From: Candidatus Omnitrophota bacterium
GTDB lineage: Bacteria; Omnitrophota; Gorgyraeia; 2-01-FULL-45-10
NCBI GenBank assembly: GCA_023247385.1
Contig: JAHFGO010000003.1
Span: 1 to 33,038 of the forward strand
Direction of reading: 5' to 3'
DNA length: 33,038 nucleotides
A program made the position numbers and the translations under genes. The notes below the pieces were generated by a model, which worked only from the letters and a program-made list of their open reading frames with translations, ran no database searches and had not been told where the DNA came from. Shown piece by piece: positions 563-14,971 of the stretch (positions are counted from its first letter, which is position 1; each line of letters starts with the position of its first letter).

Positions 563-1531
563 CTACCTTTGAAAATATTTTATAGTTTGTGTCAATATCC
601 CATCTATGTCGATTTTAGGGGAAAACCCTATCAATTTTTTTATTTTGGATATGTCCGGGCATCTATGTCTCATATCTTCAAAACCCTTTTCATAAGCCTT
701 TTCGTATGGGATATGGAGTATCTTGGATTTGGATTTGGTGAGCTTGAGCACCTTCTTCGCAAGTTCATTTATAGAGATCGCGTTGGGATTGCCTATATTA
801 AATATCTCACCTATCGATTTTTTATTTTCAGAAAGTTCAATGAGCGCCTTTACGACATCCTTGACGTAAGTAAAACTTCTTGTCTGATTACCATCGCCAT
901 ATATCGTGAGCGGTTGACCGAGGAGGGCCTGTTTAATCAGCCTAGGTATGACCATCCCATACCGCCCGGTCTGCCTTGGGCCGCATGTGTTAAAAAACCT
1001 GACTATGATGACTGGCAGTTTCTTTTCACGCCAGTATGCCAACGCTAAAAATTCATCGATCGCCTTGGTGCATGAGTAGCTCCATCTCGTAATGGTTGTC
1101 GGGCCTAGCACCCTGTCATCATCTTCGTTAAACGACCTTTTACCAGGCCTATCTTTCCCATAGATTTCTGAGGTCGATGCCAGAACTACCTTCTTCTTGC
1201 CAGATATATTAGCCAGCTCCAAGATAATTTCTGTGCCCTGGACGTTTATCTGAATAGATTCAAGCGGATTATCGATGATGTATTCTACTCCAACCGCTGC
1301 CGCTAAATGATAGATCACGTCGCATTTTTTGATAAGTCGTCCCATCAGATTTCTATTCATAATGGTATCGATATGATAGAAAAATCCTGGATTCGCTTTA
1401 AGGTGATTTATGTTCTCCATGGTTCCAGTTGAAATGTCATCAACTATTATAACCTCTTGCTTTCGCCTCAAAAGTTCTTCTGCTAAGTGCGACCCTATAA
1501 AGCCGGCGCCACCGGTGATGAGACTTCTCAT
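563..1531 (-). CDS. Extended SDR resembling the ArnA C-terminal domain (NDP-sugar / UDP-glucuronate oxidative decarboxylase; epimerase-dehydratase family)
   Basis: 322 aa with an ATG start. Motifs: GGAGFIGSHL Rossmann, STSEIYG...YSCTK catalytic S/Y/K, FFNTCGPRQ, YGDGNQTRSF. From memory of E. coli ArnA, three blocks line up with its decarboxylase domain: KKCDVIYHLAA, GPTTITRWSYSCTK (ArnA GPVNKPRWIYSVSK) and YEKGFEDMRHRCPDISK (ArnA YGKGYQDVEHRKPSI). Confidence 0.7.
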   Translation of the reverse strand: MRSLITGGAGFIGSHLAEELLRRKQEVIIVDDISTGTMENINHLKANPGFFYHIDTIMNRNLMGRLIKKCDVIYHLAAAVGVEYIIDNPLESIQINVQGTEIILELANISGKKKVVLASTSEIYGKDRPGKRSFNEDDDRVLGPTTITRWSYSCTKAIDEFLALAYWREKKLPVIIVRFFNTCGPRQTGRYGMVIPRLIKQALLGQPLTIYGDGNQTRSFTYVKDVVKALIELSENKKSIGEIFNIGNPNAISINELAKKVLKLTKSKSKILHIPYEKAYEKGFEDMRHRCPDISKIKKLIGFSPKIDIDGILTQTIKYFQR

Positions 1532-1536
1532 TATTT

Positions 1537-2721
1537 TTAAACCCCCTTAGACCTTGTTATTTTTTTCTCAAAGCACGCGTCGTATAAGTTCTCGATATCG
1601 TTCAGCAAGCGCTTTTTCGAATATTTTTCTATCGCAAGTTCTCTACCGCGTCGCCCGAATCTCAATCTTGTTTCTTTATCATCCAAAAGGCTAAAAAGTT
1701 TGTTTGAAAAATCTTCTGTATTATTACTTTTGACCAAGAACCCATTCTCGCCATTTACAATTAAATCCCTTACTCCGCCGACATCCGTTGCAACAACAGG
1801 CCTGCCAGCCGCCATTGCTTCTATAAGAGAAACTGGTGTCCCCTCACTCAGCGAGGTAAGGCTGACTATATCCAGATCTGCATAAATAGAATATAATTCG
1901 CGTTTCCATCCTGTAAAGATAACCAGCTTCTCGATATCCAGTTTCTTCACATGTTCCCGCAATGCATTGCCAAGTTCCCCGTCGCCTATAATCACAAACA
2001 TCACCTTGATAGGCAAGTTCCTATTTATGATATTTTTTGCAACGGCCAAAAACATTCTATGATTTTTGATCGGGACAAGCCTCCCTACGATGCCTACGAG
2101 AACCGCATTGGTTGATATCCCTCGTTCTTTTCTGAAAATTCCCCTCATCTCTTCACAGTGTGAAAATTTCTCCAAGTCAAGCCCAAGCGGCATAACGATA
2201 CATTTGGATGCTTTTACAATTTTTAGCTTATTTACTATATCATTTTTTATCTGCTCGCTGACTACGATGATCTTATCGGTAAAAAGCGCCAAGAATTTTT
2301 CTATTGCCAGAAATAACCTCATCCTGACCGAATCGAAATATCCATTAAAGATATGGCCGTGGAAAGTATGAATCTTTATGGGCACGCCGGAAAGTACCGC
2401 TGCCAGCCTACCTAATAAACCTGCCTTAGATGCATGAGTGTGAACTATATCGGGCTTTTCTTTCTTCAATAGAAAGTACAATTTAAATAGGACCTTTAAA
2501 TCATTCTTTAAAGATATCTCTCGTTTAAGTTCGGGCAGGAAGAGCGGCTTAAGATTTTTGTCCTTAGCTAAATCGGACATATTTCCTTCCAATGCTGACG
2601 CCTTTCCGTATATTAATATATCCTTATAACCATCTTTGTTCAGCGCCTCTGATAAGAGAACGGTATGGAGAGCGGGCCCGCCAATATTAAGCCTTGATAT
2701 TATCCTTACTATCTTTTTCAT
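1537..2721 (-). CDS. GT-B fold glycosyltransferase, family 4 (GT4)
   Basis: 394 aa with an ATG start. The C-terminal EGTPVSLIEAMAAGRPVVATDVGGVRDLI block is the E-x7-E retaining GT4 signature. The N-terminal GGPALHTV and HTHASKAG blocks are typical of the GT4 N-domain. Confidence 0.85.
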   Translation of the reverse strand: MKKIVRIISRLNIGGPALHTVLLSEALNKDGYKDILIYGKASALEGNMSDLAKDKNLKPLFLPELKREISLKNDLKVLFKLYFLLKKEKPDIVHTHASKAGLLGRLAAVLSGVPIKIHTFHGHIFNGYFDSVRMRLFLAIEKFLALFTDKIIVVSEQIKNDIVNKLKIVKASKCIVMPLGLDLEKFSHCEEMRGIFRKERGISTNAVLVGIVGRLVPIKNHRMFLAVAKNIINRNLPIKVMFVIIGDGELGNALREHVKKLDIEKLVIFTGWKRELYSIYADLDIVSLTSLSEGTPVSLIEAMAAGRPVVATDVGGVRDLIVNGENGFLVKSNNTEDFSNKLFSLLDDKETRLRFGRRGRELAIEKYSKKRLLNDIENLYDACFEKKITRSKGV

Positions 2722-2740
2722 ATTTCGTTAAATATACACT

Positions 2741-3991
2741 TTATATCGACAGCAGCTTGATTTTCCTTAGCAACAACTCATAGGACTCGTTTATACCATA
2801 GCTAAAAAATATAATCAGTAGAGGTTCTACGAGCCATCTATGTCTTCCCTCTACGTAGAATAAGCTCTGCGTCAAAAAAATTGCCATGAAGATGAAAATT
2901 ATTAACCAAACGCTCCCTTTTATAACCTTTTCTCCAGACGCAAGCGAAAGGATTAAGCCTAAGATAGAAAAACCCAGTAAGATTGAATATAGATACCTGT
3001 AGATAATAAAATATGGCTTTGGATATATGATGCCGCTTTGTGGAGAAAACCACCAAAAATAATATATTTTCGTAATATACCGTTTTATAAAACCCAATGG
3101 GTCTTTTCGTATGAAATACATGGCTTCTTTCTCGAAGAAATTTTTTTGGCCAATTTCATCAAGCGCAAATACTTTTTTTCGAAACTCTTCTGGCCATAGT
3201 TCAATTATGGTCTTGCCTTCCTTATTAAATGACGTGCCGACTGCATACTTGTTATTTCCTCGCCACAGGTTCTCGCCGGTAGTTGAGACTATAAATATGA
3301 ATCTTTTATGAATGACATAATTTCTAATTATCCAAGGCGTTATGACAATAAACGCCGCGATCGCAAAGAATATGATAATCTTAAACTTTTCATGCAATGC
3401 CAGACGGGTTATAAACAAGATAAAATATAAACTCAAAAACGGTATGAGCGCCCATATAATGCCACGGCTTAGCGCGCCCAGACCAACCATCATTCCGAGT
3501 AACGATATATTTAAGATACTTGGTCTATCTTTAAATTTCAAAACCAATAACGCAGCGGTTGCTATCAAGAATGAATCTATGCTTAAAGGTATTAAATTGA
3601 ACACATCGTAATATATAAAGCCCGGGTGGAAGCTGACAATAATTGCCGACATAAAAGCCACTTTCTCATCAAATATAATCTTTGCTATCTTGAATATCAC
3701 GAGCGCTAAAAACATAGTAAAAAGTGACTGAGCTAACAACACTGCCAGATAACTATGGTTGGTCAGAATATATATACCTGCGCATAGAAAACTATATAAT
3801 GGCGCGTTGAGGGACCTATACGGAACATCGAAGAAATAAAACAAAAACCCCTTTCCAGATAACAGGTTATTAACTATGACCTCATATTCCCACGTCACTG
3901 GATGTATGTATGTCTTGAAAATTATTATTAAAGTCAGCCTGACTGCTAATGCCATGCTTAATATGATAAACAACTTATCTTTTGTAGTCAT
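2741..3991 (-). CDS. Polytopic GT-C type glycosyltransferase, ArnT/PMT_2-like (GT39/GT83-like)
   Basis: 416 aa with at least 9 strongly hydrophobic segments. The first loop after TM1 carries acidic residues followed by a PMT_2-like block (VTWEYEVIVNNLLSGKGF...APLYSFL). A later soluble loop reads NLWRGNNKYAVGTSFNKEG. It lies 9 nt downstream of a B12-radical SAM and ArnC-like GT2 pair. Confidence 0.55.
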   Translation of the reverse strand: MTTKDKLFIILSMALAVRLTLIIIFKTYIHPVTWEYEVIVNNLLSGKGFLFYFFDVPYRSLNAPLYSFLCAGIYILTNHSYLAVLLAQSLFTMFLALVIFKIAKIIFDEKVAFMSAIIVSFHPGFIYYDVFNLIPLSIDSFLIATAALLVLKFKDRPSILNISLLGMMVGLGALSRGIIWALIPFLSLYFILFITRLALHEKFKIIIFFAIAAFIVITPWIIRNYVIHKRFIFIVSTTGENLWRGNNKYAVGTSFNKEGKTIIELWPEEFRKKVFALDEIGQKNFFEKEAMYFIRKDPLGFIKRYITKIYYFWWFSPQSGIIYPKPYFIIYRYLYSILLGFSILGLILSLASGEKVIKGSVWLIIFIFMAIFLTQSLFYVEGRHRWLVEPLLIIFFSYGINESYELLLRKIKLLSI

Positions 3992-4000
3992 CTAAACGCC

Positions 4001-5431
4001 TTAATTGAAGATGAAGCGATTTAAATATTTAACCCCTTTTGAACAGATTTGCGATATACCTTTCAAGCCGTGTCTTCTGACCATACTCATGATCACCGAT
4101 GGCTTCGAATAAAATGTCCTATAAATACTCCTATAACCATCTTCGAGCTCTTCGCGCGATAATGTGCTCGGGATGAATGAGATATGATGCCCTGTCCTGT
4201 TTGAGTAATCCCCTAATAACGTGCCTTTATTTTCTATGCCGTGGTATATGGGCGAACCCGGAAACGGAACGAAATACCACAAAAACATGTAATCCAGATC
4301 GATCTTTTTTATCAGATCGATCGTATCCGATATAGATTCTTTGTCTTCACCGGGGCCGCCGATTATAAAGGAACCTGCAAGCGAAATACCGCCATCCATA
4401 ATCATCCTACATTTTTCAGGTAATTCATCAAGGTGCAATTTTTTATTATAGACGTTTAACATCTTTGATGAGCCAGATTCGATCCCGAATATGACGCTGC
4501 GGCATCCAGCATCATACAGCGCTTTACCGGTATATGAATCTACGCTGTCTGCGCGCATTGAGCAGCTCCATGTGATATTATATTTCAGGAATTTATCTCT
4601 CAGCAGTTCGCATATCTCATTAAATCTATTTTTAGTAATGCAGAAATTTTCATCGGCCAAGTCGAGACAATTTACTTTGAATTTTTTAAACAGCATATCG
4701 ATCATCTCTGAAAGATAATCGATGCTGTAAAATCTGACATTTCTGCCGAGCACAGTACGGTCACAGAAGGTGCATGCGAATGGGCATCCGCGCGCAGTGA
4801 TGATGGGAAGATTGATATCTCTTTTTTCTTTATATAGGGCGGGCGAATAAGGGGAAAGGGTAATATGATCGAAAATCGGAAAGGACAATTTATTAACATC
4901 CGTTATCGTATTGCTGCTGCCTAGTGTTATCAAATTTTTCTCTTTTCTAAATATCACTCCATTGATGCCCGCCGGGCCTCGCCCTTCTTTTAAAGCCCTC
5001 ATCACCTCGACTATGGCCTCCTCGGCTTCCCCCAATATGCCGATATCGATCTCAGGACATTCGTTCATCGTCTCTTGAGGAACGGCGGTAAAATGAACTC
5101 CTCCGACAATTATTTTTATCTTAGGCTCAAGTTTTTTTATCAACGATATGAGTTTCAAAGACTTATTTACAAGAAACGTAAAGTGGACGGCTACCCCTAC
5201 GAATTCCGGATTCATCTCAACGATATTTTTAGCCAGCATCTCGATGCTTTCCGTCCCGTATGACAAATCCAACAGCCTAGTATTGATATTCGCCTTTGCG
5301 AGGCTGGCTGCTAAATAGACTAGATTTATAGGTGTTCCATATTGTCCCACAAAATCTAACAGGCCAAAATTTTCCTCTAACCCAAATGGAGGGCTGGTTA
5401 AAACAATGCCCAGCTTCTGTCCGTTCAGCAA
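4001..5431 (-). CDS. B12-binding-domain radical SAM protein (class B type)
   Basis: 476 aa. The CxxxCxxC motif occurs in ITARGCPFACTFCDR. An N-terminal Rossmann-like cobalamin-binding-type region is present (IIVGGVHFTAVPQE...GEAEEAIVEV). The start is a TTG at 5431-5429 that overlaps the upstream stop by 7 nt, preceded by AAGGAAG. Confidence 0.8.
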   Translation of the reverse strand: MLNGQKLGIVLTSPPFGLEENFGLLDFVGQYGTPINLVYLAASLAKANINTRLLDLSYGTESIEMLAKNIVEMNPEFVGVAVHFTFLVNKSLKLISLIKKLEPKIKIIVGGVHFTAVPQETMNECPEIDIGILGEAEEAIVEVMRALKEGRGPAGINGVIFRKEKNLITLGSSNTITDVNKLSFPIFDHITLSPYSPALYKEKRDINLPIITARGCPFACTFCDRTVLGRNVRFYSIDYLSEMIDMLFKKFKVNCLDLADENFCITKNRFNEICELLRDKFLKYNITWSCSMRADSVDSYTGKALYDAGCRSVIFGIESGSSKMLNVYNKKLHLDELPEKCRMIMDGGISLAGSFIIGGPGEDKESISDTIDLIKKIDLDYMFLWYFVPFPGSPIYHGIENKGTLLGDYSNRTGHHISFIPSTLSREELEDGYRSIYRTFYSKPSVIMSMVRRHGLKGISQICSKGVKYLNRFIFN

Positions 5432-6375
5432 TTTATTTCTTCCTTCACCGTATAAACAGATTTTTTTGTAGTCTCATAATATATGCGTATATTGAGCTCT
5501 GCCAGTAAACCTATGAATATGATCTGTGTCCCCAAAATGAACAGAAAGACCGCCAGCAATAACAGGGGATTTCTGTGCACCCAGAATCCCCACATGAACT
5601 TCTGAAACAGCGTAAACATTCCGCACAGCGTTCCCAGCACCATTAAAAGGATTCCCCATCCCCCAAAAAAATATAAAGGACTCGTTGAATAGTTGCCCAA
5701 AAGGAATTTCACAGTTATCAGGTCAAAGATAACCTTAAGCATCCTGTTCATTCCATATTTGGAATTCCCCCATTTGCGCTCTCTGTGATGTACTTCGACT
5801 TCCGCTATCTTCCCACCCTGCCAGTAAACATATAATGGCATAAATCGGTGCATCTCTCCATATAGATTTATATTTTTTAGAAAATCTTTTCTATAGGCCT
5901 TTAAGGTGCAGCCATAATCATGCAATTTTAGACCAGTCGATGCGGATATTATATAATTGGCTATTAAGGAGGGAAGCCGCCTCTTTATGAAAGGCTCTTT
6001 TCTTTTTCTTCTCCATCCGCTTACTAAATCATAACCATCCCTTATTTTTTGCATAAGAGAAATGATATCCTGCGGGTCATTCTGCAGGTCTGCGTCCATC
6101 GTCATGATATAGCTGCCTTTGGAATAATCGATCCCTGCGGCTATCGCTGACGTCTGTCCATAATTTCTTCTAAATATAATCCCTTTCACGTTACTATCGC
6201 TCTTCGCTGTTTGCCTTATCATCGCCTCGCTCTTATCGGTGCTGCCATCATCAACGAAGATGATCTCATAAGGGTCCTTCGATTTCGACAAAACGCCTTT
6301 TAGCTCATTATAAAGATGGGGGAGGTTTCCCTCTTCATTATATACAGGTATTACAATTGAAATAAGAGCCGCCAT
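5425..6375 (-). CDS. Polyprenyl-phosphate glycosyltransferase, GT2, ArnC/GtrB/DPM1-like, with two C-terminal TM helices
   Basis: Blocks that match remembered E. coli ArnC: VIPVYNEE, DDGSTD, RRNYGQTSAIAAG, MDADLQNDP, DYGCTLKAYR, HHRERKWGNSKY. Two hydrophobic helices follow (LYFFGGWGILLMVLG... and LLLLAVFLFILGTQIIFIGLL). I place the start at the ATG at 6375 (MAALISIVIP) because GAGAGGTGG lies 5 nt upstream. The ORF-track start at 6390 is a GTG five codons further up. Confidence 0.85.
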   Translation of the reverse strand: MAALISIVIPVYNEEGNLPHLYNELKGVLSKSKDPYEIIFVDDGSTDKSEAMIRQTAKSDSNVKGIIFRRNYGQTSAIAAGIDYSKGSYIMTMDADLQNDPQDIISLMQKIRDGYDLVSGWRRKRKEPFIKRRLPSLIANYIISASTGLKLHDYGCTLKAYRKDFLKNINLYGEMHRFMPLYVYWQGGKIAEVEVHHRERKWGNSKYGMNRMLKVIFDLITVKFLLGNYSTSPLYFFGGWGILLMVLGTLCGMFTLFQKFMWGFWVHRNPLLLLAVFLFILGTQIIFIGLLAELNIRIYYETTKKSVYTVKEEINC

Positions 6376-6398
6376 ATCCACCTCTCTCACAAGTAGCG

Positions 6399-7583
6399 CT
6401 AATATAAATCGATATCTGAATCACCATATGTCAAATACCAATTCTTTCTATCTTGAAGGAATGAACCATTTTTATTTATCATCCCCTCATTCAATAAATG
6501 TATAAGGAACCTATCATTAGATTTTATATTGATAAAACCTGACGTTCTGACAGTCCGTTGTATTACGGGACTTAAAGAATCGCATCTCACAAGATCTACC
6601 CTGCCATTAAAATCTTGAAGAGCCGTGTTGAGAAGAGAGACGCCGATATTCTTTTCCTTCGGATCAAAGAAGATATCAGAGATTATCCCTACTTTTAATC
6701 CGCCGAATCTGATGTTATCGCTCTTAACGTTAGCTTCTCGTATTACAGCATAGCCTCTTAAGCCGCCTTTTATCTCTGCGGTTAATATCTTATAGCGCCG
6801 ATATGGTTGATCTATAAATCTCCATTTCAGCATGCCCTTGTCTCTAGTCGCTATGCATGTGGATTGTTTTGAAGCCTCTAGCCAAAAACTATCAAACCCT
6901 TCATCGAAATTCACAGCTTCTGAAACCTCAACATTTTCATTCTTATGGAATCTATTCCAAAGATGCGATAATTTAAATATTGCATTTATTGTGACATGTA
7001 AAAATGGTCGCATAAGTTCCATATCAATGCTCTTTTCTAATATATTTTTAAAATTTAGCGGATATACGCTTCTATTGATAGCCCCCATGTCAAGGAAACC
7101 TGCCTTTTTGAATAGATCGTATGAGCGTTCATTTGTACCAGCCGCCATTACTATATCAATAAGGCCATTTAATTTTTTTAATGCGTGTTGAATTAAAGAG
7201 TGACCGATACCCATATTTCTGAAAAGGGGTAATATTATAAAATCCTGAAACCAACCGCCTTTATAAGTCTCTTGTCCAACTTTCAAATCTATCGGCATCA
7301 CGCAGATTTGACCAACCATTTTATCCCTGAACCGACAGATCCAAATAATAGGTTTCCACCTTACCATGGTTGGATTATCCAGATATTTCCAGTCCCAAAA
7401 CTTCTTCACCATTTCGCGCTTTTCGAATTTATCACGGTTGAACTGGTCTTTATATGCAACCATTAAAAAATCTATATATTCCTCTTTATCCGCAAGAGAT
7501 AGATTTTCAAATTCCACTTTTGGCTCATTATCGGATAATAAGAGTCCCTCAGTCCTTACAGAGTTCTTCTTATCTTCTGCCAT
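6399..7583 (-). CDS. GNAT-family N-acyltransferase with an additional C-terminal domain
   Basis: 394 aa with an ATG start. The GNAT motif A is LFRNMGIGHSLIQHALKKL, preceded by a beta-strand block GQICVMPIDLKV. About 200 further residues are of unrecognised fold. The gene overlaps the upstream CE4 gene by 28 nt. Confidence 0.6.
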   Translation of the reverse strand: MAEDKKNSVRTEGLLLSDNEPKVEFENLSLADKEEYIDFLMVAYKDQFNRDKFEKREMVKKFWDWKYLDNPTMVRWKPIIWICRFRDKMVGQICVMPIDLKVGQETYKGGWFQDFIILPLFRNMGIGHSLIQHALKKLNGLIDIVMAAGTNERSYDLFKKAGFLDMGAINRSVYPLNFKNILEKSIDMELMRPFLHVTINAIFKLSHLWNRFHKNENVEVSEAVNFDEGFDSFWLEASKQSTCIATRDKGMLKWRFIDQPYRRYKILTAEIKGGLRGYAVIREANVKSDNIRFGGLKVGIISDIFFDPKEKNIGVSLLNTALQDFNGRVDLVRCDSLSPVIQRTVRTSGFINIKSNDRFLIHLLNEGMINKNGSFLQDRKNWYLTYGDSDIDLY

Positions 7584-8368
7584 AGTTCATACCAATCATA
7601 GGCGCCTTCTAACTCTTTTGCAAACTCATATTTATCATCGAACCAGGATATGCGCGTTCGCCTCATCAGGTAGGGATCGCTCTCGATGGTATTAGAGCCG
7701 GCTATTGTGGTGAATGCTGCTTTATACCCTGCGGATTTCACCGCATCCACAGCACTTTTATCAAAAGACCCATAGCAACCAAATGGATATGCAAAAAGAT
7801 CTATTGTGGTCCTGAGATGATCTTCTAAGATGTTTTTTGATAGGCCCATCTCATTCTTCAGCTCATTTGTTTCTAGGCGATGCAGCTTCTTATGACTTAA
7901 AGAATGCGAACCGAAAGAGAATATGCCCATCGCTGTCAACTCCATGAGGTCATCCCAGTTAAGCCATTGCTCGCTCCTTCCGATAAAATTTACGGTTAAA
8001 AATATCGTCGCCCTAAACCCATATCGCGCTAAGATGGGCGCGGCATTAGTCAGATTGTCTTTAAAACCGTCATCGAATGTTATGCATATTGTTTTTGGAG
8101 GCATCTCTTTGTTTTCCTTTATGTTATCAATCATCTCGCCGCATGGTATGACAGAGTAACTATTTTCATTTAAGTATCTCATCTGTTCTTTAAAGAGCTC
8201 CTTGGGCGTTGTCATCTGATAGTTATCGTCTCCGATAAGGTCATCTGTTATCGAATGATAGGTCAACACACGGAATTCTCCCCTTGCGACATCTAAAATG
8301 GTTCGGAATGGATTAAAATGAAAGGCTATATTTGCTATTGTCTTTTTCAATGTCAGTTTTTTATCCAT
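7556..8368 (-). CDS. Polysaccharide deacetylase, NodB-homology / carbohydrate esterase 4 family
   Basis: 270 aa. NodB motif 1 is ICITFDDGFKDN, the metal-binding motif is FGSHSLSHKKL, and a later block is AYPFGCY. Its ATG directly abuts the upstream stop (TAGATG). Confidence 0.8.
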   Translation of the reverse strand: MDKKLTLKKTIANIAFHFNPFRTILDVARGEFRVLTYHSITDDLIGDDNYQMTTPKELFKEQMRYLNENSYSVIPCGEMIDNIKENKEMPPKTICITFDDGFKDNLTNAAPILARYGFRATIFLTVNFIGRSEQWLNWDDLMELTAMGIFSFGSHSLSHKKLHRLETNELKNEMGLSKNILEDHLRTTIDLFAYPFGCYGSFDKSAVDAVKSAGYKAAFTTIAGSNTIESDPYLMRRTRISWFDDKYEFAKELEGAYDWYELWQKIRRTL

Positions 8369-10225
8369 CTATATATCACCATTAAGATAATAGTAAATTA
8401 TTGCAAGATATTCGTGAACTATCCCCTTGATTTGCCGAAGGTCTATCTGTTTATGAAAGACGCCTCTTTTCACATGTGAATAAAATGAACTCTGCGGCAA
8501 AGGGGTGTATGTTACTTGTACATCTTTGGCGATCTTATCAAAGACGAGCGATACGCGCCGCATATGATAAGGAGAGCTGACCAATAAAATTTTTTTCCAT
8601 TTTTCTCTGTCTAAAATTTTTTTTGTAAATGCCACATTTTCATAGGTATTTCGCGCGGCATCCTCCAAGATGACAGCCCTTTCAGGCACACCCAATGATA
8701 TCGCCAGACCCTTCATCACCAGCGTCTCTTTAAAGACGTACATATAACCTGAGGAAAAGATCAAACGATCTGCATAACCTTTTTTGTACAATTCAACAGC
8801 ATACCCCACTCGCTCTTCATAGCCCTGGCCGGCCTTACCGGATTCTCCAACACCTCCTCCAAAGACAACGATACAATCTGCCTTCCGGGGTGCCTCTGAA
8901 ATATTTAACGGCTCGGCAATCGACCAGACTATGGGTGTACAAAATATCAGCAGATACATGCCGCCAAGAAGACTGGCTATCTTCAGTGCTCTTTTACGCG
9001 ATACTATATAAAATTTGAGAAAACGCTCCTTCCAGTCTGCGGAACTTTTGGTTTTCTTCGCAATAGCGTCTCCCATTAAATCGCCCATCTTCTCGATCCG
9101 CGCTGCCCAGCCATGCTTCTTTGCCGACTCTATCCGCTGCTCCCTCAATTCGCCAGCCTTGCCGTCAAGCACGCCTGATATCCTTTCTATAAACTCGTCA
9201 TGAGTTTTCCCAACCAGTACAATGTTATCATTCTCGTTATTAAAGTTGACAATTTCTGGCAAATTCGTAGATACTACAGGTTTGCCCATTGCATGATATT
9301 CATTTAATTTCGTGGGGAAGACGGTTGTAGTATAGCCGCTCACTTCATAAGGTATGATACAGACATCGAATTGATCTACATAATTTGGAAGAGTGGAAAA
9401 ATCTCTTTTTCCTAATAGATATATATTTGTGAGATTGCTTATCGCAGAGATATCCGCCTGTACAGGCCCAACTAGAACTATAGACCAGTCAGGATGAGAC
9501 TGGGCCATGAACTTTATTAAACCGAAATCCATATGCCTATGTATGCCGCCAACATACCCGATCACGGGCCGTTTTATATCTTTTATATCATCTGGAATAT
9601 CGGTGCCATCCTCCAGTACACTAAAGGTCTCTATATTTACTCCGAATGGGAATATATGCACATTCTTATTCAGGCCTTCGCACTTCTCTTTCAGGGCATT
9701 GCCCTGTGCAAATATCACGTCACTTTTCCTTATTAGTTCATCTTCTGTCTGGCGTATCTTTTTTGGATCATTTACCAATTCATAAAAATCTGCTATGCAG
9801 TAATAGACTAATAATTTCCTATCGATATCATTTATGATGTCGATAGCCGTGCCCGTAGGCAAGAACGTCCAGATGATAGGTTCATGAAATTCCATTATCT
9901 TCATCCATCGCCTTATAGGATTGATGAGCATATATCTATTTATATATCTAGCGATTTTAGAATATGGAAAAGGCAAAATTATCGGCGAGTACACATACAG
10001 ATTATTCATCTCCTCTCTAAAACCTCTTACGCTTTTAAACCAGTTGGCTATCCTCTTTTTGAGCCTCTGAATGTCAGTTAGGCTAGGTGGCCTGACGCCG
10101 GTGTTTTCAATAAATAAGACCCTATTGCCGTTTTTGGCAAAAGTTGACATTATCTCCTGATGGCCCTGCCATATAAAATCCCAATCGATCGAGGATATAC
10201 AAATTATGTCTTCGCCCTTTAGCAT
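8369..10225 (-). CDS. Fusion protein: N-terminal GT-B glycosyltransferase (GT4, TuaH-like), one TM helix, C-terminal DUF218 (YdcF/ElyC/SanA-like) domain
   Basis: 618 aa with an ATG at 10225. The N-terminus reads IICISSIDWDFIWQGHQEIMSTFAKNGNRVLFIEN and the acceptor/donor half reads VIGYVGG...FPTKLNEYHAMGKPVVSTNLPEI. The hydrophobic helix is ALKIASLLGGMYLLIFCTPIVWSI. The DUF218 blocks are ADCIVVFGGGVGESG, RLIFSSGY, NTYENV and ILLVSSPYHMRRV. Confidence 0.65.
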   Translation of the reverse strand: MLKGEDIICISSIDWDFIWQGHQEIMSTFAKNGNRVLFIENTGVRPPSLTDIQRLKKRIANWFKSVRGFREEMNNLYVYSPIILPFPYSKIARYINRYMLINPIRRWMKIMEFHEPIIWTFLPTGTAIDIINDIDRKLLVYYCIADFYELVNDPKKIRQTEDELIRKSDVIFAQGNALKEKCEGLNKNVHIFPFGVNIETFSVLEDGTDIPDDIKDIKRPVIGYVGGIHRHMDFGLIKFMAQSHPDWSIVLVGPVQADISAISNLTNIYLLGKRDFSTLPNYVDQFDVCIIPYEVSGYTTTVFPTKLNEYHAMGKPVVSTNLPEIVNFNNENDNIVLVGKTHDEFIERISGVLDGKAGELREQRIESAKKHGWAARIEKMGDLMGDAIAKKTKSSADWKERFLKFYIVSRKRALKIASLLGGMYLLIFCTPIVWSIAEPLNISEAPRKADCIVVFGGGVGESGKAGQGYEERVGYAVELYKKGYADRLIFSSGYMYVFKETLVMKGLAISLGVPERAVILEDAARNTYENVAFTKKILDREKWKKILLVSSPYHMRRVSLVFDKIAKDVQVTYTPLPQSSFYSHVKRGVFHKQIDLRQIKGIVHEYLAIIYYYLNGDI

Positions 10226-10252
10226 ATAATTTTTTCCATATATTAATACTAA

Positions 10253-10281
10253 ATTATATAAGAAAGATATTAGGAAGGCAA
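10253..10281 (-). promoter_or_regulatory. Candidate sigma70-type promoter for the downstream (lower-coordinate) half of the cluster
   Basis: On the minus strand the sequence is TTGCCT (10281-10276), a 17-nt spacer, then TATAAT (10258-10253). The -10 element lies about 28 nt upstream of the ATG at 10225. It sits inside the 124-nt AT-rich gap, one of only two real intergenic gaps in the window. Confidence 0.35.
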
Positions 10282-10349
10282 CTACAATCTTACATCATAA
10301 ATATCGCTATATTTAGCTTTGAAAGACTTAGTGGGAAGCAATATCGCTC

Positions 10350-10862
10350 TTAATCGAATTCGCTTTTTTTCCCAAAAATGATAAGCTTCATCATTATAAA
10401 CAGCCTTGCTATCAATAAAACTATATGTCGTTTAAGATAATATCTTCCGCTTTTGAATGTGATTTGTCTATTGTTAAGCAATCTTTTAAGCCGATTGTCA
10501 ATCATCTCTTTAGCATTGTAGCGTTCGAGAATCTGCTGCATAGAAAGTCCGTCTCTAGCGTCGTATATCTCCCTTAAAATCCTGATCCTCCGCGCTGTTT
10601 CGCTTAAACATATAAAACTGAAATAACAGTAAGATAGCGACGCATAGATCAAGAGATTTACCAAAAACATAGCTATGCGGTCGGTTAGCGCCATCGCCTC
10701 AATTCTAAAAAAATAAGATTGGTATATCAACAAGCCAAATGCGCCGGCACCGACGCCGACGAAAACGGATCTCAACAAGTTGGTCTTCAAAATATATCGG
10801 AAACTTGCGATCTGGAACAGCATATTTATTATAAGACAGGCTATGGGAACGAACGCGACCAC
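10350..10862 (-). CDS. Uncharacterised small membrane protein (3-4 TM) with a winged-helix-like soluble segment; paralog of 10864..11385
   Basis: 170 aa. The GTG start at 10862 is preceded by AGGAGG with a 5-nt spacing. Three N-terminal hydrophobic helices are followed by ARRIRILREIYDARDGLSMQQILERYNAKEMIDNRLKRLLNNRQITFKSGRYYLKRH and then a hydrophobic tail IVLLIARLFIMMKLIIFG. I do not recognise the family. Confidence 0.6.
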   Translation of the reverse strand: MVAFVPIACLIINMLFQIASFRYILKTNLLRSVFVGVGAGAFGLLIYQSYFFRIEAMALTDRIAMFLVNLLIYASLSYCYFSFICLSETARRIRILREIYDARDGLSMQQILERYNAKEMIDNRLKRLLNNRQITFKSGRYYLKRHIVLLIARLFIMMKLIIFGKKSEFD

Positions 10863-10863
10863 C

Positions 10864-11385
10864 TCATCCTCCTTTCGGCATGTTTAGTATTCTACGATAA
10901 AATATAAAAACGCGTTCTGTATAATTGCCTTTTTTGGTCAATCTATAAATATCCCCACTTTTATAGACCAATCCGTCTTTCATCAAATCCATGATTCTCG
11001 TCTTTATTAACATATCGTCCGTCATCATCTTATACAACTCTTCCTTGGCCAAGCCGTGCGATCCCGCATCAGCGATGTGTTGTATAATAAGTAGGGACGG
11101 ACTGTCTGCCTCTATAGCTGGATAATTAAATATATAGAAAAGACCTAGGGAAAGATAAAGCAGCGATATGTGAAGGCATTCTAAAAGATTTTTAGGAAAA
11201 AATAAATTGATGACGAGGGTAGATCTTGATGCAATCCATAAAAGGATGAGCGACAAAATCAAATTCAATAAAAATAGACGGAACAAGCTATTCGTCGGTT
11301 GTTTCGGCGGATATATCCTCCATCTGGCGATATGGATAGTAAAGAATATGAAAAATATAAGTATGCCCCATATGAGGATTAGCAT
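10864..11385 (-). CDS. Uncharacterised small membrane protein (3 TM) with a winged-helix-like soluble segment; paralog of 10350..10862
   Basis: 173 aa. The ATG overlaps the upstream SDR stop by 7 nt. Three hydrophobic helices are followed by SPSLLIIQHIADAGSHGLAKEELYKMMTDDMLIKTRIMDLMKDGLVYKSGDIYRLTKKG. This aligns by eye with the equivalent segment of the next gene (GL...e.l......mi..R...L......fKSG.YyL.k). Confidence 0.6.
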   Translation of the reverse strand: MLILIWGILIFFIFFTIHIARWRIYPPKQPTNSLFRLFLLNLILSLILLWIASRSTLVINLFFPKNLLECLHISLLYLSLGLFYIFNYPAIEADSPSLLIIQHIADAGSHGLAKEELYKMMTDDMLIKTRIMDLMKDGLVYKSGDIYRLTKKGNYTERVFIFYRRILNMPKGG

Positions 11386-12302
11386 CTCACCGCTTCAAAA
11401 CTTTGAATAGTATATCGAATGCCTTCTTCAAGAGAGGTCTTTGCCTTAAAACCCAATACTCGTTGCGCATTTTTTGTATCGTTATATAATCTGCTGTTAT
11501 TATTGTTAAGAGCATTATCTGCAAATCTTATTTGAGATGAAGAACGTGTTTCTTTGACGATCAGTTTTGCCAATTCTGCTAAAGTTGTCACCCTGCCGTT
11601 GCATATCGAGAAATGTCTGAAAGTATGAGAATGGGAATTCCAGAGATATCTCATAGTCAGATAGACGGCCTCCACAGCATCCTTATAATATATAAAATCA
11701 AACTGTTGGCGAGGGGTGGTTATGATGATTTCCTTATTATCCAACGATCTTGACATAATGTTCGGAAGCGCCTTCTCTGGGTTATCATATGCCGACCCAT
11801 AAACGTCGGAGAAACGAAGTGCTATCGTCCTGATTGAGTAATCTTTAGCATATCGAAAACATAAAAGTTCAGATATAAATTTAGAAATACCGTACATGTT
11901 CGTGATCTCTCTAAGGTCACTCTTTAAATCATTAGCTTCCCAGTCAAAGTTGACCTCTCGGGTACTGCTTATAATCAACCATGGTCTTTTTTGAGAAAGG
12001 CGTATACTTTCCAAAATGTTCAATGTCCCAATGACATTCAAGTCAATGCATTCATAAGGCATTTCTCTGGCCAGACTCACCCTGCTGAGTGCTGCTAAAT
12101 GAATGACGCCATCCATCTCAGAACAGGCCTCTACCAGTTGTCTCAGATTATTGATATCGCCTTTAATGAATTTCATTGTATCTATATCATTTCTTTTTTG
12201 AATATCGAACAGATACAAGTCATATTCGCTATATAATGACAGCAACTCGATCAGATGCATGCCGATAAAACCGCAACCGCCTGTGATGAGAATCTTTTTC
12301 AT
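11379..12302 (-). CDS. NAD(P)-dependent epimerase/dehydratase/reductase (extended SDR) acting on an NDP-sugar
   Basis: Motifs: KKILITGGCGFIGMHL Rossmann, SST...YGISK catalytic triad, LRFSDVYG. I prefer the ATG at 12302 (MKKILITGG), 13 nt after the aminotransferase stop. The ORF-track start at 12350 is a TTG that would add 16 residues and overlap the upstream gene by 35 nt. Confidence 0.75.
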   Translation of the reverse strand: MKKILITGGCGFIGMHLIELLSLYSEYDLYLFDIQKRNDIDTMKFIKGDINNLRQLVEACSEMDGVIHLAALSRVSLAREMPYECIDLNVIGTLNILESIRLSQKRPWLIISSTREVNFDWEANDLKSDLREITNMYGISKFISELLCFRYAKDYSIRTIALRFSDVYGSAYDNPEKALPNIMSRSLDNKEIIITTPRQQFDFIYYKDAVEAVYLTMRYLWNSHSHTFRHFSICNGRVTTLAELAKLIVKETRSSSQIRFADNALNNNNSRLYNDTKNAQRVLGFKAKTSLEEGIRYTIQSFEAVRC

Positions 12303-12315
12303 AATTTCAGCTGTC

Positions 12316-13422
12316 TCATTTTTTATGATAAAATTTTTTGATTGCAGCAATCACCACATCTACTGCGGAATCTTCCATTTCAGGATATATCGGAAGTGAT
12401 AATACGGTCTTGGATACATATTCGGTGCGGGGCAGATTAAACTTGCCCAGACCTAATGCCTTCTGAAGGTGGACGGGTTTGCGCCAGTGCACAAACACCT
12501 CTATCCCTTTCCGAGCTAAATGCTCAACGAGATCATCTCTTCGCTCAGCGCATATACAATATGAACTATATACATCATAAAATTCGCCATCTGACGGTGG
12601 CGGCGGAAGCCTTAATTCCGAGATTGAGAATAAGCCTTGGTGGTATTTCGAGGCTATCGTGCGTCTTTTTTCAATCCACTTTTTTAAATATTTATATTTA
12701 ATGTTGAGGACAGCTGCGTGTAGATTATCGAGGCGGCTATTGAACCCAAACGCTTCTATCTCATCCTTTGTCTTCTGTCCATGGTCCCTTAAAAGGCGAA
12801 TCTTTTCAGCAAAACTTTCATCATCTGTTGCCAGGAAACCTCCGTCTCCCGGCGCGCCGACTGTTTTAATTGGATGCAGGCTGAAACAGCCGATACCGAA
12901 AGTCCCTGTCTTCTTGCCCTTATATGATGCGCCGAGTGCTTGACAGCTGTCTTCTATAACTACCAGATCGTGTCTTTTGGCAATCTCCATTATCTTTGAC
13001 ATCTCGCAGGCTCGGCCATTAAGATGAACGGGAATGATGCCACAGGTCCTATTGGTGACAGCCTCTTCTATCCGGTTGACATCCATATTATAATCTTCTC
13101 CTATGTCCACTAGGACTGGCTCAAGGCCACAGTGCTTGATGGCGGCTATCGTGGCGATGAAGGTATGGCTGACCGTGATGATCTCGCTAGCCGGTTCGAA
13201 TCTCTGGGCATGGATTGCTAAAAACAGGCTGTCCGTTCCGCTGTTCAACCCTATGATGCAGCGGCATCCAAGGTAATTGGCCATATTCTTCTCAAATTTT
13301 TTCACGTCATCTCTTAAAATAAAACTGCCGGAAGAGAAGACGGCCTTGATTGCGGAAGAGAGATCTGTTTCCATATTTGCATACTGCTTAGGTAAATCGA
13401 TGTAAGGCACTTTGAACTTCAT
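12316..13422 (-). CDS. PLP-dependent NDP-sugar aminotransferase, DegT/DnrJ/EryC1/StrS (ArnB-like) family
   Basis: 368 aa with an ATG start. Family blocks: GLNSGTDSLFLA, IIPVHLNGRACEM, VIEDSCQALGASYKGKKTGTFG and FSLHPIKTVGAPGDGGF, which carries the Schiff-base Lys context. RLLRDHG is also present. Confidence 0.85.
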   Translation of the reverse strand: MKFKVPYIDLPKQYANMETDLSSAIKAVFSSGSFILRDDVKKFEKNMANYLGCRCIIGLNSGTDSLFLAIHAQRFEPASEIITVSHTFIATIAAIKHCGLEPVLVDIGEDYNMDVNRIEEAVTNRTCGIIPVHLNGRACEMSKIMEIAKRHDLVVIEDSCQALGASYKGKKTGTFGIGCFSLHPIKTVGAPGDGGFLATDDESFAEKIRLLRDHGQKTKDEIEAFGFNSRLDNLHAAVLNIKYKYLKKWIEKRRTIASKYHQGLFSISELRLPPPPSDGEFYDVYSSYCICAERRDDLVEHLARKGIEVFVHWRKPVHLQKALGLGKFNLPRTEYVSKTVLSLPIYPEMEDSAVDVVIAAIKKFYHKK

Positions 13423-13434
13423 CGGGTTTATCTC

Positions 13435-14277
13435 TTAAGACAATATATCGCCTTTCTTTAATCTTGTGTCGGCATTCACTAAAATAACACCATCATTGGT
13501 GCTTATAACATATCTTCCGTCGCGAGTGACCCCCAAGACTTCCCCGGCCCTCTTTCCCGGATATGCGCGTCTAAATTGTATCCTCTCTCGATTTTTGAAA
13601 CCGAAGGCATTAGGCATCGGATCGACGAGAGCATTTATAAATCGATTCAACTGGAAGCTGGTCTTCATCCAGTCTATCCTGCTATCAGCAGGCGTTCTCT
13701 TGGCCAGATAGGTTGAAAAGCCACGTATCTGTTTCCTTCGGTATGCGCACTTATTCTCTATCTGCCGAACTGCTGTGAGTAACAATTTTTTGCCGCATGC
13801 GATCAGCCTCTTTGAGATGGTGCCATAATCATCGTCTCGCGCAAATTCGATGCTATCCTGCAGAACAATATCTCCATCATCTATATTTTCATTCATAAAA
13901 TGGACTGTGATGCCCATCTCTCTCTCGCCATTTATGATTGCCCAATTCACAGGGTGACGGCCCCTATATTTTGGTAATATTGAAGTATGTAGATTGACAG
14001 CCCCAATTTTAGGAATGCCCAATATAGACAGTTTTATTATTTCGGGGTAGGCAATAAAGATCATTAGATCAGGCTCGATCTTCTTTATTCTGCCTGCCAG
14101 AGAATGTATATCATCCGTCACAATCGTCTCTATCCCTAACCGGCCCAATGCCCTTTTAGAGATCTCGAGATAATTATGTCTATGGAGCACCAGCAATTCC
14201 GGCCTGTATCCGAACTTGCAGAGGTTCTTTACATTCTCTATAAAGGGCTCTGACGAACCTCCCATGACTATCTTCAA
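13435..14277 (-). CDS. Formyltransferase, ArnA N-terminal-domain / Fmt-like (sugar N-formyltransferase candidate)
   Basis: [48 protein letters not shown] matches remembered ArnA [45 protein letters not shown]...[10 protein letters not shown] matches ArnA RRTPDDSFLEW...AVADPWPGAF. I place the start at the TTG at 14277 (MKIVMGGS), which has GGAGGA 7 nt upstream and lies 4 nt after the upstream stop. The ORF-track start at 14304 is another TTG that overlaps the upstream gene. Confidence 0.8.
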   Translation of the reverse strand: [280 protein letters not shown]

Positions 14278-14281
14278 TGCC

Positions 14282-14971
14282 TTATCCTCCACGCAGGATA
14301 TCAAAGACGGATTTTAGAATGCCGATTATATTTTTTATTCTAAATGCCTTGGAATGGCCCTTTTTTCTATCCAATAAATATATACCTACCTCTATATAGC
14401 CATAGCCTCTTTTTAACAATTTTACGAGCGCCTCAGCCTGATAGGCAAAACTATCCGTCTTTATTGCGATGGAACTTATGATCGAAGTTTTGTGAAGGAC
14501 CATTCCATTATAATATTTCAATCTAAGGCCCGCCGCCAGATTCACCAACTGCACAAAGCCCTTTGATATGATCTGTCTCCATAAAGGCCTGGAGCGCTCG
14601 TTCAAATGAAACGGTATCACCATATCCGCTTTATTTCTTAAATCGAAAGTGTCTTCGAATGCCTTTTGCTCAACATCATTATCACCTGTGACCAACATCA
14701 GGTATTCCATTCTGGCCATCTTGATGCCAGATTTATAGACGTAACCAAGGTTCATAGGTCGAGGATGGTGCATGGCTCTTACTTTGGGGTTAGTGCGCGC
14801 TATTTCATCGACGATTTTACCGGTGTCATCCGTTGAGCCATCATTGAATATTATCATTTCATAATCCGCAAATCTTCCATCTATCGCCCGTTTTACTTTA
14901 TCGTATGTCTGAAGCAGGTTATCTTCCTCATTCAAAGCCGTTATGATGATCGATATCGTATCTCGGTTCAT
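14282..14971 (-). CDS. GT2 glycosyltransferase, Dpm1/ArnC-like catalytic domain without TM helices (paralog of 19541..20311)
   Basis: 229 aa with an ATG start. Blocks: ISIIITALNEEDNL, IIFNDGSTDDTGKIV, LVTGDNDVE, MVIPFHLNERSRPLWRQIISKGF. No hydrophobic C-terminal helices are present. It aligns by eye with the 256-aa GT2 at 19541..20311. Confidence 0.75.
   Translation of the reverse strand: MNRDTISIIITALNEEDNLLQTYDKVKRAIDGRFADYEMIIFNDGSTDDTGKIVDEIARTNPKVRAMHHPRPMNLGYVYKSGIKMARMEYLMLVTGDNDVEQKAFEDTFDLRNKADMVIPFHLNERSRPLWRQIISKGFVQLVNLAAGLRLKYYNGMVLHKTSIISSIAIKTDSFAYQAEALVKLLKRGYGYIEVGIYLLDRKKGHSKAFRIKNIIGILKSVFDILRGG

Follow-up and report, generated by a model that had tools for sequence, protein, structure and literature searches.

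A predicted formamido-sugar and polyprenyl-phosphate glycosyltransferase cassette in a surface-glycan operon of a Candidatus Omnitrophota bacterium

Introduction

The Arn system of Escherichia coli and Salmonella (PmrHFIJKLM) oxidizes a nucleotide sugar, transaminates it, N-formylates it and loads it onto polyprenyl phosphate before a GT-C glycosyltransferase acts. To our knowledge, and in the literature searched, no lipid-phosphate-linked formamido sugar has been described outside Arn. Polyprenyl-phosphate glycosyltransferases (GTs) that lack transmembrane (TM) helices and have small membrane partners are exemplified by human DPM1 with DPM2/DPM3 and by mycobacterial PpgS (Rv3631) with Rv3632, and amination of a sugar at C3 without deoxygenation is carried out by oxidoreductase/aminotransferase pairs such as WbpB/WbpE, GnnA/GnnB and NtdC/NtdA. 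In three-component extracytoplasmic glycosylation, a GT2 enzyme that charges polyprenyl phosphate works with a GT-C enzyme and a flippase whose family varies, as in GtrA/GtrB/Gtr*, CsbB/GtcA/YfhO and polyprenyl-phosphoribose synthase/MATE/GT136 (PMC11127046, PMC8035078). Here we describe a contiguous cassette for a predicted formamido sugar in a stretch of 33,038 nucleotides from a Candidatus Omnitrophota bacterium (contig JAHFGO010000003.1 of assembly GCA_023247385.1; "the window"), which is the entire 33-kb contig C75 of a 1.78-Mb metagenome-assembled genome (MAG; 153 contigs, ~94% complete).

On balance, the cassette is probably an uncharacterized, formyl-using variant of three-component glycosylation (polyprenyl-phosphate sugar plus GT-C) and not a set of Arn orthologues. 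In the proposed pathway, a short-chain dehydrogenase/reductase (SDR2) would oxidize a nucleotide sugar to a keto sugar with no dehydration, and a DegT aminotransferase (AT) would convert the keto group to an amine, at C3 more likely than at C4. A formyltransferase (FT) would then N-formylate this amine using N10-formyl-tetrahydrofolate, and a TM-less GT2 (GT2_s) would move the formamido sugar onto polyprenyl phosphate at the inner membrane face. The lipid-linked sugar would be flipped, perhaps with the help of a pair of membrane proteins (small1 and small2), and a GT-C of the operon, for which the candidates are the PMT_2 protein at 2741-3991 or two 577-aa proteins at 26503-29969, would attach it to a surface glycan.

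Results

All sizeable open reading frames (ORFs) of the window share the minus strand and make up a single long operon. The first-pass annotation had read genes dispersed between 563 and 14971 as an Arn-like module in which every functional analog was present. The window was analyzed by Pfam and NCBIfam profile scans, a PDB sequence search and BLAST comparison with the arn operon and fmt of E. coli K-12. All of the listed ORFs were found at their coordinates on the minus strand, and Pfam returned the family that each had been given; such assignments carry the caveat that any large glycan locus can be expected to contain SDR, DegT, GT2, CE4 and GT-C genes. The dispersed module itself did not hold together, as only 10350-14971 recurs as a unit and genes of different branches had been merged. 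The real unit was deduced to be this contiguous cassette with an attached gene for a B12-binding radical SAM enzyme (14978-16474, minus strand; Pfam B12-binding and Radical_SAM), which together are one of several lipid-carrier branches in a giant operon for surface glycans. Packing is tight, with intergenic gaps of 6, 4, 12, 13, -7 and 1 nt, the 6-nt gap separating the radical SAM gene from GT2_s.

The lipid-carrier step was assigned to GT2_s (14282-14971, minus strand; Pfam Glycos_transf_2), a TM-less, DPM1/PpgS-like GT2 whose gene lies 4 nt upstream of the FT start. The AlphaFold (AF2) model had a pLDDT of 91.6, and in a Foldseek search of the PDB the top 19 matches were all ArnC, DPMS or GtrB, covering the whole length at TMq values of 0.75-0.82 with ArnC first; other GT-A enzymes came next at TMq <=0.71. 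The ArnC class has been defined (PMC12690121) by the DADLQx motif, by R128, R137 and S141 as ligands of the acceptor phosphate and by R205 as ligand of the donor. When aligned with E. coli ArnC, GT2_s keeps the equivalents of R137, S141 and R205 (R132, S136 and R202) together with an RxxGxSK motif, while the ordinary GT2s of the operon (GT2_c and GT2_e, at 16487-17416 and 30077-30994, respectively) lack both the Ser and the GxSK motif. The gene that the first-pass annotation had noted immediately upstream of the formyltransferase was thus borne out as a GT2 with a predicted ArnC/DPMS/GtrB fold and acceptor-phosphate ligands. GT2_s also matched the models for PpgS and for an archaeal Dol-P-hexose transferase, weakly and over the full model length. 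Its family comprises ~130 homologues, many of them named dolichol-phosphate mannosyltransferase by JGI and one fused to GtrA, and orthologues were found at 63% identity in locus L022 and 45% in locus L006. The model and the retained ligands support GT2_s as a predicted polyprenyl-phosphate glycosyltransferase that would load the finished sugar onto the lipid carrier.

These data bear directly on an alternative in which the cassette belongs to an ordinary NDP-formamido-sugar pathway, as for Qui3NFo/Qui4NFo in O-antigens, and a Leloir glycosyltransferase, possibly GT2_s itself, transfers the sugar to an undecaprenyl-diphosphate (Und-PP) repeat unit with neither a monophosphate carrier nor a GT-C. 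Such a pathway would be consistent with the formyltransferase and DegT genes found in classical contexts, beside FdtA in L017 and NeuB in L019, with the many ordinary GT2/GT4 genes, WecA and Wzy_C of the operon and with the lack of a GT-C adjacent to the cassette in the window. It is nevertheless considered unlikely. The nearest structural neighbors of GT2_s were exclusively polyprenyl-phosphate GTs, and its Arg/Ser phosphate ligands are kept, unlike those of GT2_c and GT2_e. The GtrA fusion within the family, the YfhO, DUF2079 and PMT_2 genes that neighbor its members, and the membrane pair that ends the cassette and flanks YfhO elsewhere also argue against it.

The GT2_s relatives were surveyed at 80 loci, with one genome per species. 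Their usual partners were E1 beta (50 loci), E1 alpha (37), DegT (31), SDR3 (31), HldE-like (28) and SIS (20) genes, and GT-C genes (YfhO, DUF2079, PMT_2 or relatives of the 577-aa proteins) lay at most 10 kb away in at least 14 of the 80. The family was found in Elusimicrobiota, Planctomycetota, Omnitrophota, Bdellovibrionota, Myxococcota, Proteobacteria and DPANN archaea. In a woesearchaeotal locus with E1 alpha/beta, two DegT genes and a GT2_s relative (L078, 6890-7622), two adjacent small ORFs of EamA/SMR type (131 and 123 aa) were observed; this archaeal pair is ArnE/F-like and, as a single case, fits the need for a flippase. In a Burkholderiales MAG (L091, 15748-17613), a 32% relative of the unannotated 577-aa membrane proteins of the window stands beside a cassette of E1 alpha/beta, DegT and a GT2_s relative, and the 577-aa family is therefore linked to the same kind of system.

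The FT gene (13435-14277, minus strand) encodes a two-domain N-formyltransferase of Fmt/ArnA type (280 aa; Pfam Formyl_trans_N and Formyl_trans_C), and its TTG start at 14277 is identical to the gene call in an independent assembly. Against solved structures, FT scored 115 bits with the ArnA N-terminal domain (ArnA-N), 92 with Fmt, 79 with the GDP-perosamine formyltransferase WbkC and 35-52 with the WlaRD/QdtF/VioF/PseJ types, which places it outside the dTDP/GDP-sugar N-formyltransferases. The by-eye alignment of the first-pass annotation was confirmed, with 30.5% identity to E. coli ArnA-N over 275 aa (27.5% to E. coli Fmt by BLAST), and the FT residues N95/H97/D133 and SILPKYRG aligned with ArnA N102/H104/D140 and SLLPKYRG, indicating an intact catalytic triad and folate motif; the triad, the folate motif and the Fmt-like C-terminal subdomain are all common to Fmt too. 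Membership of FT in ArnA-N was not supported. Scores were below the cutoffs of the ArnA-type NCBIfam models (NF005998, 155 versus 777 bits; split-ArnA PRK06988, 154 versus 316), and in a maximum-likelihood tree FT grouped not within ArnA but in an 18-sequence clade of its own (support 82/88), apart from the ArnA-N clade (E. coli and P0072; 100/100) and the Fmt clade (97/100), the deep order among the three not being resolved by the tree.

FT is rare. Approximately 20 metagenomic proteins were found at 35-51% identity, below which true Fmts follow, and no orthologue was present in 40 relatives of the same family, order or class. A single-sequence scan of the genome contig collection with FT gave no match because FT is too rare and divergent. 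FT as the housekeeping Fmt was ruled out by a true Fmt on contig C23 (302 bits), so that FT is deduced to be an extra, specialized copy. Elsewhere in the genome, a third formyltransferase-like gene (C137:8948-9577, locus L015) has a 352-aa frame and is 27% identical to FT, and a PurN-like gene is present on C135 in addition to the Fmt on C23. Members of the FT clade adjoin a DegT aminotransferase in every context examined. The clade is uncharacterized and, should the model hold, would add a new branch to the sugar N-formyltransferases.

The aminotransferase (12316-13422, minus strand) is a pyridoxal phosphate (PLP) enzyme of the DegT/DnrJ/EryC1 family (Pfam, 324 bits) with Lys186. Against solved structures, it scored 305 bits with 7b0d, 259 with 7n63, 245 with 2oga, 241 with QdtB and 204 with WbpE, followed by perosamine synthase (167), ArnB (150) and PseC (113). 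A literature search on PDB entries, among them 7B0D, 7N63 and 8VR2, brought up nothing but unrelated taxonomy papers and gave no function for the top match, 7b0d. AT was below the ArnB equivalog cutoff (NF008658, 206 versus 631 bits) and was 30% identical to E. coli ArnB. By these comparisons AT appears far closer to sugar C3-aminotransferases (200-305 bits) than to ArnB, to which the first-pass annotation had likened it, and a 4-amino sugar is therefore doubtful. Orthologues at 45-62% identity stand beside FT and/or SDR2 in L006, L016, L018 and L022.

SDR2 (11379-12302, minus strand; Pfam Epimerase) is a divergent extended SDR of 307 aa that is always encoded directly downstream of AT. Its motifs are GGCGFIG, S113-T-R-E and Y137xxxK; the S-T-R-E stands in place of the TDE/TSE triad and lacks the Asp of TDE, and the C-terminal decarboxylase motif of UXS/ArnA is also lacking. 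Orthologues were found at 48% (L022), 37% (L006), 32% (L016) and 30% (L018) identity. A role as analogue of the C-terminal domain of ArnA (ArnA-C) was ruled out by the identity of 22% (21.7% by BLAST) and the lack of decarboxylase motifs. SDR2 is predicted from its sequence to be the sugar oxidase that supplies the keto substrate.

For the position of the amine, the C3-type AT, the lack of the dehydratase Asp in SDR2 and the FdtA or GFO/MocA genes in relatives point to C3, to which we give about an even chance. The best, weak homology of SDR2 suggests a 4-amino-4,6-dideoxyhexose, a lesser though appreciable possibility, while an Ara4N-like pentose, suggested by a UXS-like SDR (SDR1, below) and a ugd-type gene, has a slight chance. 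A literature search on 3-formamido pathways gave one marginal match.

The cassette was supported as a unit by its recurrence. In L006/L007, AT (51%), SDR2 (37%), GT2_s (45%) and FT (51%) share an operon that adjoins a YfhO GT-C and an orthologue (59%) of GT2_d, a second TM-less GT2 of the window (below); the gene order in L006 is AT-SDR2-GT2-FT, and no CE4 gene is nearby. In L022, which holds the closest homologue of GT2_s, the order of the window is repeated with HldE-like (68%), SIS (59%), rSAM3 (66%) and rSAM2 (60%) genes, followed by GT2_s (63%), AT (62%), SDR2 (48%), small1 (38%) and small2 (40%), with a hexapeptide acyltransferase in the FT slot; the GT2-hexapeptide-DegT arrangement is repeated in L033 and L039. 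A swap of N-formyl for N-acetyl in these three loci was dropped as unproven, the acyltransferase being nearest to LacA/Maa O-acetyltransferases (70 bits) and scoring only 40 with QdtC. L016 (Oligoflexia) carries FT, AT (50%), SDR2 (32%) and GFO/MocA genes, and L018 carries AT, FT, SDR2, rSAM-SPASM2 (45%), AT, AT and SDR3 (57%). The formyltransferase adjoins the FdtA ketoisomerase in L017, GFO/MocA and YfhO in L008, and NeuB in L019. The AT-FT-SDR2 trio is thus kept in L016 and L018. The distribution of the cassette is accessory (non-vertical).

The cassette ends in two paralogous membrane proteins (10350-11385), each with three to four hydrophobic segments. The first, small1 (10864-11385, minus strand; 173 aa), has three hydrophobic segments, read as TM helices, and a soluble C-terminal domain; small2 (10350-10862, minus strand; 170 aa) was modeled by AF2 (pLDDT 87) with three TM helices, a winged helix and a C-terminal hydrophobic helix. 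No Pfam family was found for either, and only marginal winged-helix matches were obtained for small1. In Foldseek, small2 had no whole-protein match and no SMR/EamA/GtrA transporter fold, the only matches being MarR/IclR-type winged helices over ~70 residues. The small2 family has 59 homologues, all annotated as hypothetical, from Dissulfurispira, Scalindua and deltaproteobacterial MAGs, and a motif of type GETARRIRILRE is invariant; small2 was absent from 40 relatives.

Orthologues of small1 (38-41%) always adjoin small2, in L022, L025 and L026. In L025 (Scalindua; 2779-9516) and L026 (JGI contig; 6905-11992), small1 (41%) and small2 (44-49%) lie directly beside YfhO GT-Cs of 1333 and 804 aa, respectively, together with an orthologue (42-43%) of the B12-radical SAM gene at 14978-16474, and aminotransferase and formyltransferase genes are missing from both loci. 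Further copies of the pair were found in L055, in L059 (beside YfhO) and in L105. In every case small1 and small2 occur together, and unrelated lineages have them next to YfhO GT-Cs and TM-less GT2s. The association of B12-radical SAM, small1/small2 and YfhO GT-C is kept in Scalindua and another lineage, and in the window the GT2-FT-AT-SDR2 genes look like an insertion that separates the radical SAM gene from small1/small2. A pair of short ORFs in L008 turned out to be transposase fragments and not homologues of these proteins.

The position of the pair had suggested an ArnE/F-like flippase. This could not be upheld. ArnE/F are SMR/EamA-type proteins of about 110-130 aa with four TM helices and form a heterodimeric flippase; small1/small2 show no homology to them and no structural likeness, and have in common with them only that they are paired, paralogous, small membrane proteins at that place in an operon. 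To call them candidate accessory or flippase subunits is guesswork. A more specific reading, to which we give a low chance, is that small1/small2 form a new two-subunit family that anchors a soluble GT2 and/or flips the polyprenyl-phosphate sugar, in a cassette that has independently and nonorthologously reinvented the Arn scheme. The pair would then replace ArnE/F, GtrA or DPM2/3 in YfhO-type and related GT-C systems of Nitrospirota, anammox Planctomycetota, Omnitrophota-like and other lineages.

The company kept by the pair also bears on a reading in which GT2_s loads a common sugar first, and SDR2, AT, FT and the B12-radical SAM enzyme then modify it at the membrane with small1/small2 as a scaffold. 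Tailoring on the lipid has precedents in ArnD and DprE1/DprE2, whose substrates are lipid-linked sugars. Of the cassette genes, that for GT2_s is the first to be transcribed, and small1/small2 and the B12-radical SAM gene travel with GT-C genes even where aminotransferase and formyltransferase are missing. Lipid-level epimerization is, moreover, known in related three-component systems (PMC11127046). The reading was nevertheless deemed quite improbable, since the characterized relatives of FT and AT all act on soluble nucleotide sugars, SDR2, AT and FT all lack a membrane-binding segment, and the gene order differs in L006 (AT-SDR2-GT2-FT).

The remaining genes of the supposed Arn module were deduced to belong to other branches of the operon. 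SDR1 (563-1531, minus strand), which lies between a GT4 gene and a WecA-like initiating transferase, is a member of the UDP-glucuronate decarboxylase (UXS-like) family. Its alignment with ArnA-C was confirmed (32.7% identity over 343 aa in E. coli), and its motifs STSEIYG (S119-T-S-E), Y152xxxK and KGFEDMRHRCP (R290), the last matching ArnA KGYQDVEHRKP (R619), are shared by UXS. Its reading as the ArnA decarboxylase was not sustained. SDR1 is nearer to human UXS1 (175 bits in the PDB) than to ArnA-C (134 bits) and below the NCBIfam cutoffs (NF005998, 158 versus 777; NF008872, 163 versus 294), its gene is 10 kb away from the cassette and is missing from the conserved cassette of L006, L016, L018 and L022, and the cassette carries its own SDR. 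Greater closeness to UXS was one of the outcomes that the first-pass annotation itself had named as refuting its reading.

A second polyprenyl-phosphate glycosyltransferase branch is represented by the ArnC-like GT2 (5425-6375, minus strand), which has two C-terminal TM helices and keeps DADLQN, R128, R137, S141 and R205. The resemblance to ArnC that had been claimed for it holds for these hallmark residues, the TM helices and the identity of 33.7% to E. coli ArnC. ArnC was its best-matching model and scored 188 bits in the PDB search (GtrB, 129), but the 219 bits obtained with the model fall short of the equivalog cutoff of 529, and the protein is therefore termed ArnC-like and not an equivalog. 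A B12-radical SAM gene (4001-5431) is the sole gene between this GT2 and the GT-C glycosyltransferase (2741-3991, minus strand; 416 aa, eight hydrophobic segments). The latter had been called ArnT/PMT-like; the PMT part stood (Pfam PMT_2, 41 bits), and the ArnT part did not, as PF02366 was absent and neither an NCBIfam or PDB sequence match nor BLAST similarity to ArnT was found. The lipid A Ara4N transferase ArnT (GT83) is about 550 aa long and has a periplasmic C-terminal domain. As a control, E. coli ArnT scored 211 bits on PF02366, and ArnE/F matched EamA/SMR in Pfam.

The CE4 de-N-acetylase (7556-8368, minus strand; Pfam Polysacc_deac_1, 85 bits) has no signal peptide or TM helix and contains the catalytic motifs FDDG (D99-D100) and HSLSH (H155xxxH) in a PgaB/IcaB-like form. 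With ArnD it has only the CE4 superfamily in common, as no ArnD model matched at E<0.01 and BLAST gave no match to E. coli ArnD. The gene overlaps that of a 394-aa two-domain GNAT protein (6399-7583) by 28 nt, and the overlapping pair is kept in all five close relatives whose contigs reach downstream (47-60% identity; L115-L119). Among 39 CE4 loci of at least 6 kb, a formyltransferase was found in none, an ArnC-like GT2 in six and a PMT_2 gene in four. From this linkage, CE4 was deduced to be part of a de-N-acetylation/re-acylation unit and not of the formyl branch, which leaves its proposed role as an ArnD analog, and with it a transient N-formyl intermediate, without support. The CE4-GNAT unit probably serves the adjacent branch of ArnC-like GT2, B12-radical SAM and PMT_2 GT-C.

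A true Arn pathway split into single domains would have Ugd and SDR1 make UDP-4-keto-pentose, AT make the 4-amino-pentose and FT a transient N-formyl derivative, followed by loading onto undecaprenyl phosphate (Und-P), deformylation by CE4, flipping by the small pair and transfer to lipid A by PMT_2. It could draw on the UXS/ArnA decarboxylase motifs of SDR1 including the R619 equivalent, on the ugd-type gene and LpxC in the genome, on ArnA-N as the best solved-structure match of FT, on the hallmark residues of the ArnC-like GT2 and on the missing signal peptide of CE4, as in ArnD. We hold it to be very improbable. No NCBIfam Arn equivalog model reached its cutoff with any window protein, and those for ArnD, ArnT, ArnE and ArnF gave no match at all; these four have no detectable homologue in the window, and the claim that every functional analog is present was overstated. 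The other data against it are that SDR1 is nearer to UXS, 10 kb off and absent from the recurring cassettes; that the bits of AT for C3-aminotransferases are about double those for ArnB; that CE4 pairs with GNAT (5/5) and with a formyltransferase in 0/39 loci, no CE4 being near the L006 cassette; that small1/small2 resemble ArnE/F neither in sequence nor in fold; that the GT-C lacks the PF02366 signature of ArnT; and that FT is not nested within the ArnA clade.

The operon runs on beyond the left end of the window, where an independent assembly (L005, 9622-15788) has a full-length WecA-like gene (348 aa), Wzy_C (415 aa), a GT9 heptosyltransferase, one more B12-radical SAM gene and six additional GT2 genes; the glycan locus is therefore larger than 50 kb. 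LpxC was found in the genome, so the organism makes lipid A, and together with WecA, Wzy_C and GT9 this indicates that LPS-type acceptors exist. LPS is possible as the acceptor of the formyl branch, for which no link to lipid A was found. A ugd-type dehydrogenase gene, for which the first-pass annotation had proposed a search elsewhere in the genome, was found on C152 (TuaD model, 580 bits), where it is clustered with an RmlA-like nucleotidyltransferase and a 148-aa RmlC/WbuC-like cupin (L001, 227-2733).

Within the window, a second TM-less, polyprenyl-phosphate-GT-like GT2, GT2_d (19541-20311, minus strand), keeps the R137/S141/R205 equivalents and GxSK, and its orthologue in L006 is the one that stands beside YfhO and next to the cassette. 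The window was thus taken to hold several parallel lipid-carrier branches, with three polyprenyl-phosphate-type GT2s and at least one GT-C. The HldE-like protein (23973-25514) has its nucleotidyltransferase domain N-terminal and its PfkB kinase domain C-terminal, the reverse of E. coli HldE, and this order is kept in L022 at 68% identity. In the gap of 125 nt after small2, a minus-strand promoter-like site was observed at 10253-10281 (TTGCCT, 17 nt, TATAAT; 10/12 matches); no terminator was found in this gap, and the count of promoter-like sites was not above the shuffled expectation. A separate transcription unit is possible.

Discussion

The general logic of amino sugar, N-formylation, lipid-phosphate carrier and GT-C, which the first-pass annotation had proposed, is supported by the sequence comparisons and structural models, with the contiguous cassette as its predicted carrier. 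Several points weigh against reading the cassette as a formyl-using three-component system. The data show gene families, catalytic residues, fold, conserved synteny and an accessory distribution, from which the chemical steps, the lipid acceptor, the flipping and the final acceptor are all deduced. GT2_s lacks the first Asp of DADLQ, its equivalent of ArnC R128 is ambiguous in the alignment, and GT-A folds are mutually alike, so that the fold argument hangs on the ranking (TMq 0.8 versus 0.7). The nearest, weak matches of SDR2 are 4,6-dehydratases of RmlB type (114 bits in NCBIfam, 86 bits in the PDB), and the regiochemistry of AT is taken from a similarity ranking alone. No GT-C of the window is assignable to the formyl branch, and none is adjacent to the cassette. 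The winged helix of small1/small2 is equally compatible with a regulatory role. Finally, neither a formyltransferase nor SDR2 was found in any of the 80 loci of GT2_s relatives; the coupling of GT2 and FT is therefore documented only in the window and L006/L007, and the survey thus makes the formyl branch a rare variant of a widespread cassette type.

If the three-component model is true, N-formylation followed by polyprenyl-phosphate loading would be a more general route to extracytoplasmic sugar donors. The conserved small1/small2 pair is a tangible candidate for a component still missing from three-component glycosylation systems, the flippase or anchor, which biochemistry has never proven. 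There is also a warning in these data, in that such loci should not be annotated as polymyxin resistance (arn), the defining Arn features being present here only as family-level resemblance.

Compared with Arn, the cassette would follow the same order of reactions, and it encodes an ArnC-fold GT2 next to a two-domain formyltransferase of Fmt/ArnA type. It differs in that SDR2 is not a decarboxylase, AT is of C3 type, FT forms a separate clade and GT2_s has no TM helices. Homologues of ArnD, ArnT and ArnE/F and a conserved deformylase are lacking, no indication of later removal of the formyl group was found, and the acceptor need not be lipid A.

Among the NDP-sugar N-formyltransferases (WlaRD, QdtF/FdtF, VioF, WbtJ, WbkC and PseJ), the reaction type and the pairing with DegT are the same, and the FT-clade member in L017 adjoins FdtA as in the Fuc3NFo/Qui3NFo pathways. 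FT itself, however, scores much higher with ArnA-N and Fmt (115 and 92 bits, respectively) than with these enzymes (35-79) and has an Fmt-type C-terminal domain. With the WbpB/WbpE type, the cassette shares a fixed pair of oxidase and DegT enzyme, a score of 204 bits between AT and WbpE, and GFO/MocA genes in the L008 and L016 relatives, but the oxidase of the cassette is an SDR and not a GFO/MocA enzyme. The DPM1/PpgS systems are matched by analogy, in that a soluble, DPM1-type catalytic subunit (GT2_s) appears to be encoded near small membrane proteins, although small1/small2 have no detectable sequence or fold similarity to GtrA-like proteins.

The three-component systems provide the closest frame. 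GT2_s, GT2_d and the ArnC-like GT2, with PMT_2, YfhO, DUF2079 or the 577-aa family as partners, fit that scheme. The differences are that the cassette would custom-build its donor sugar (oxidase, AT and FT), that its charging GT2 has no TM helices, and that no GtrA, SMR or MATE flippase gene is present in the window, a pair with three TM helices and a winged helix standing in that position. The cassette, the FT clade and the small1/small2 family are uncharacterized, while the scheme itself is a variant of the known three-component paradigm (PMC11127046) and is Arn-like in its logic.

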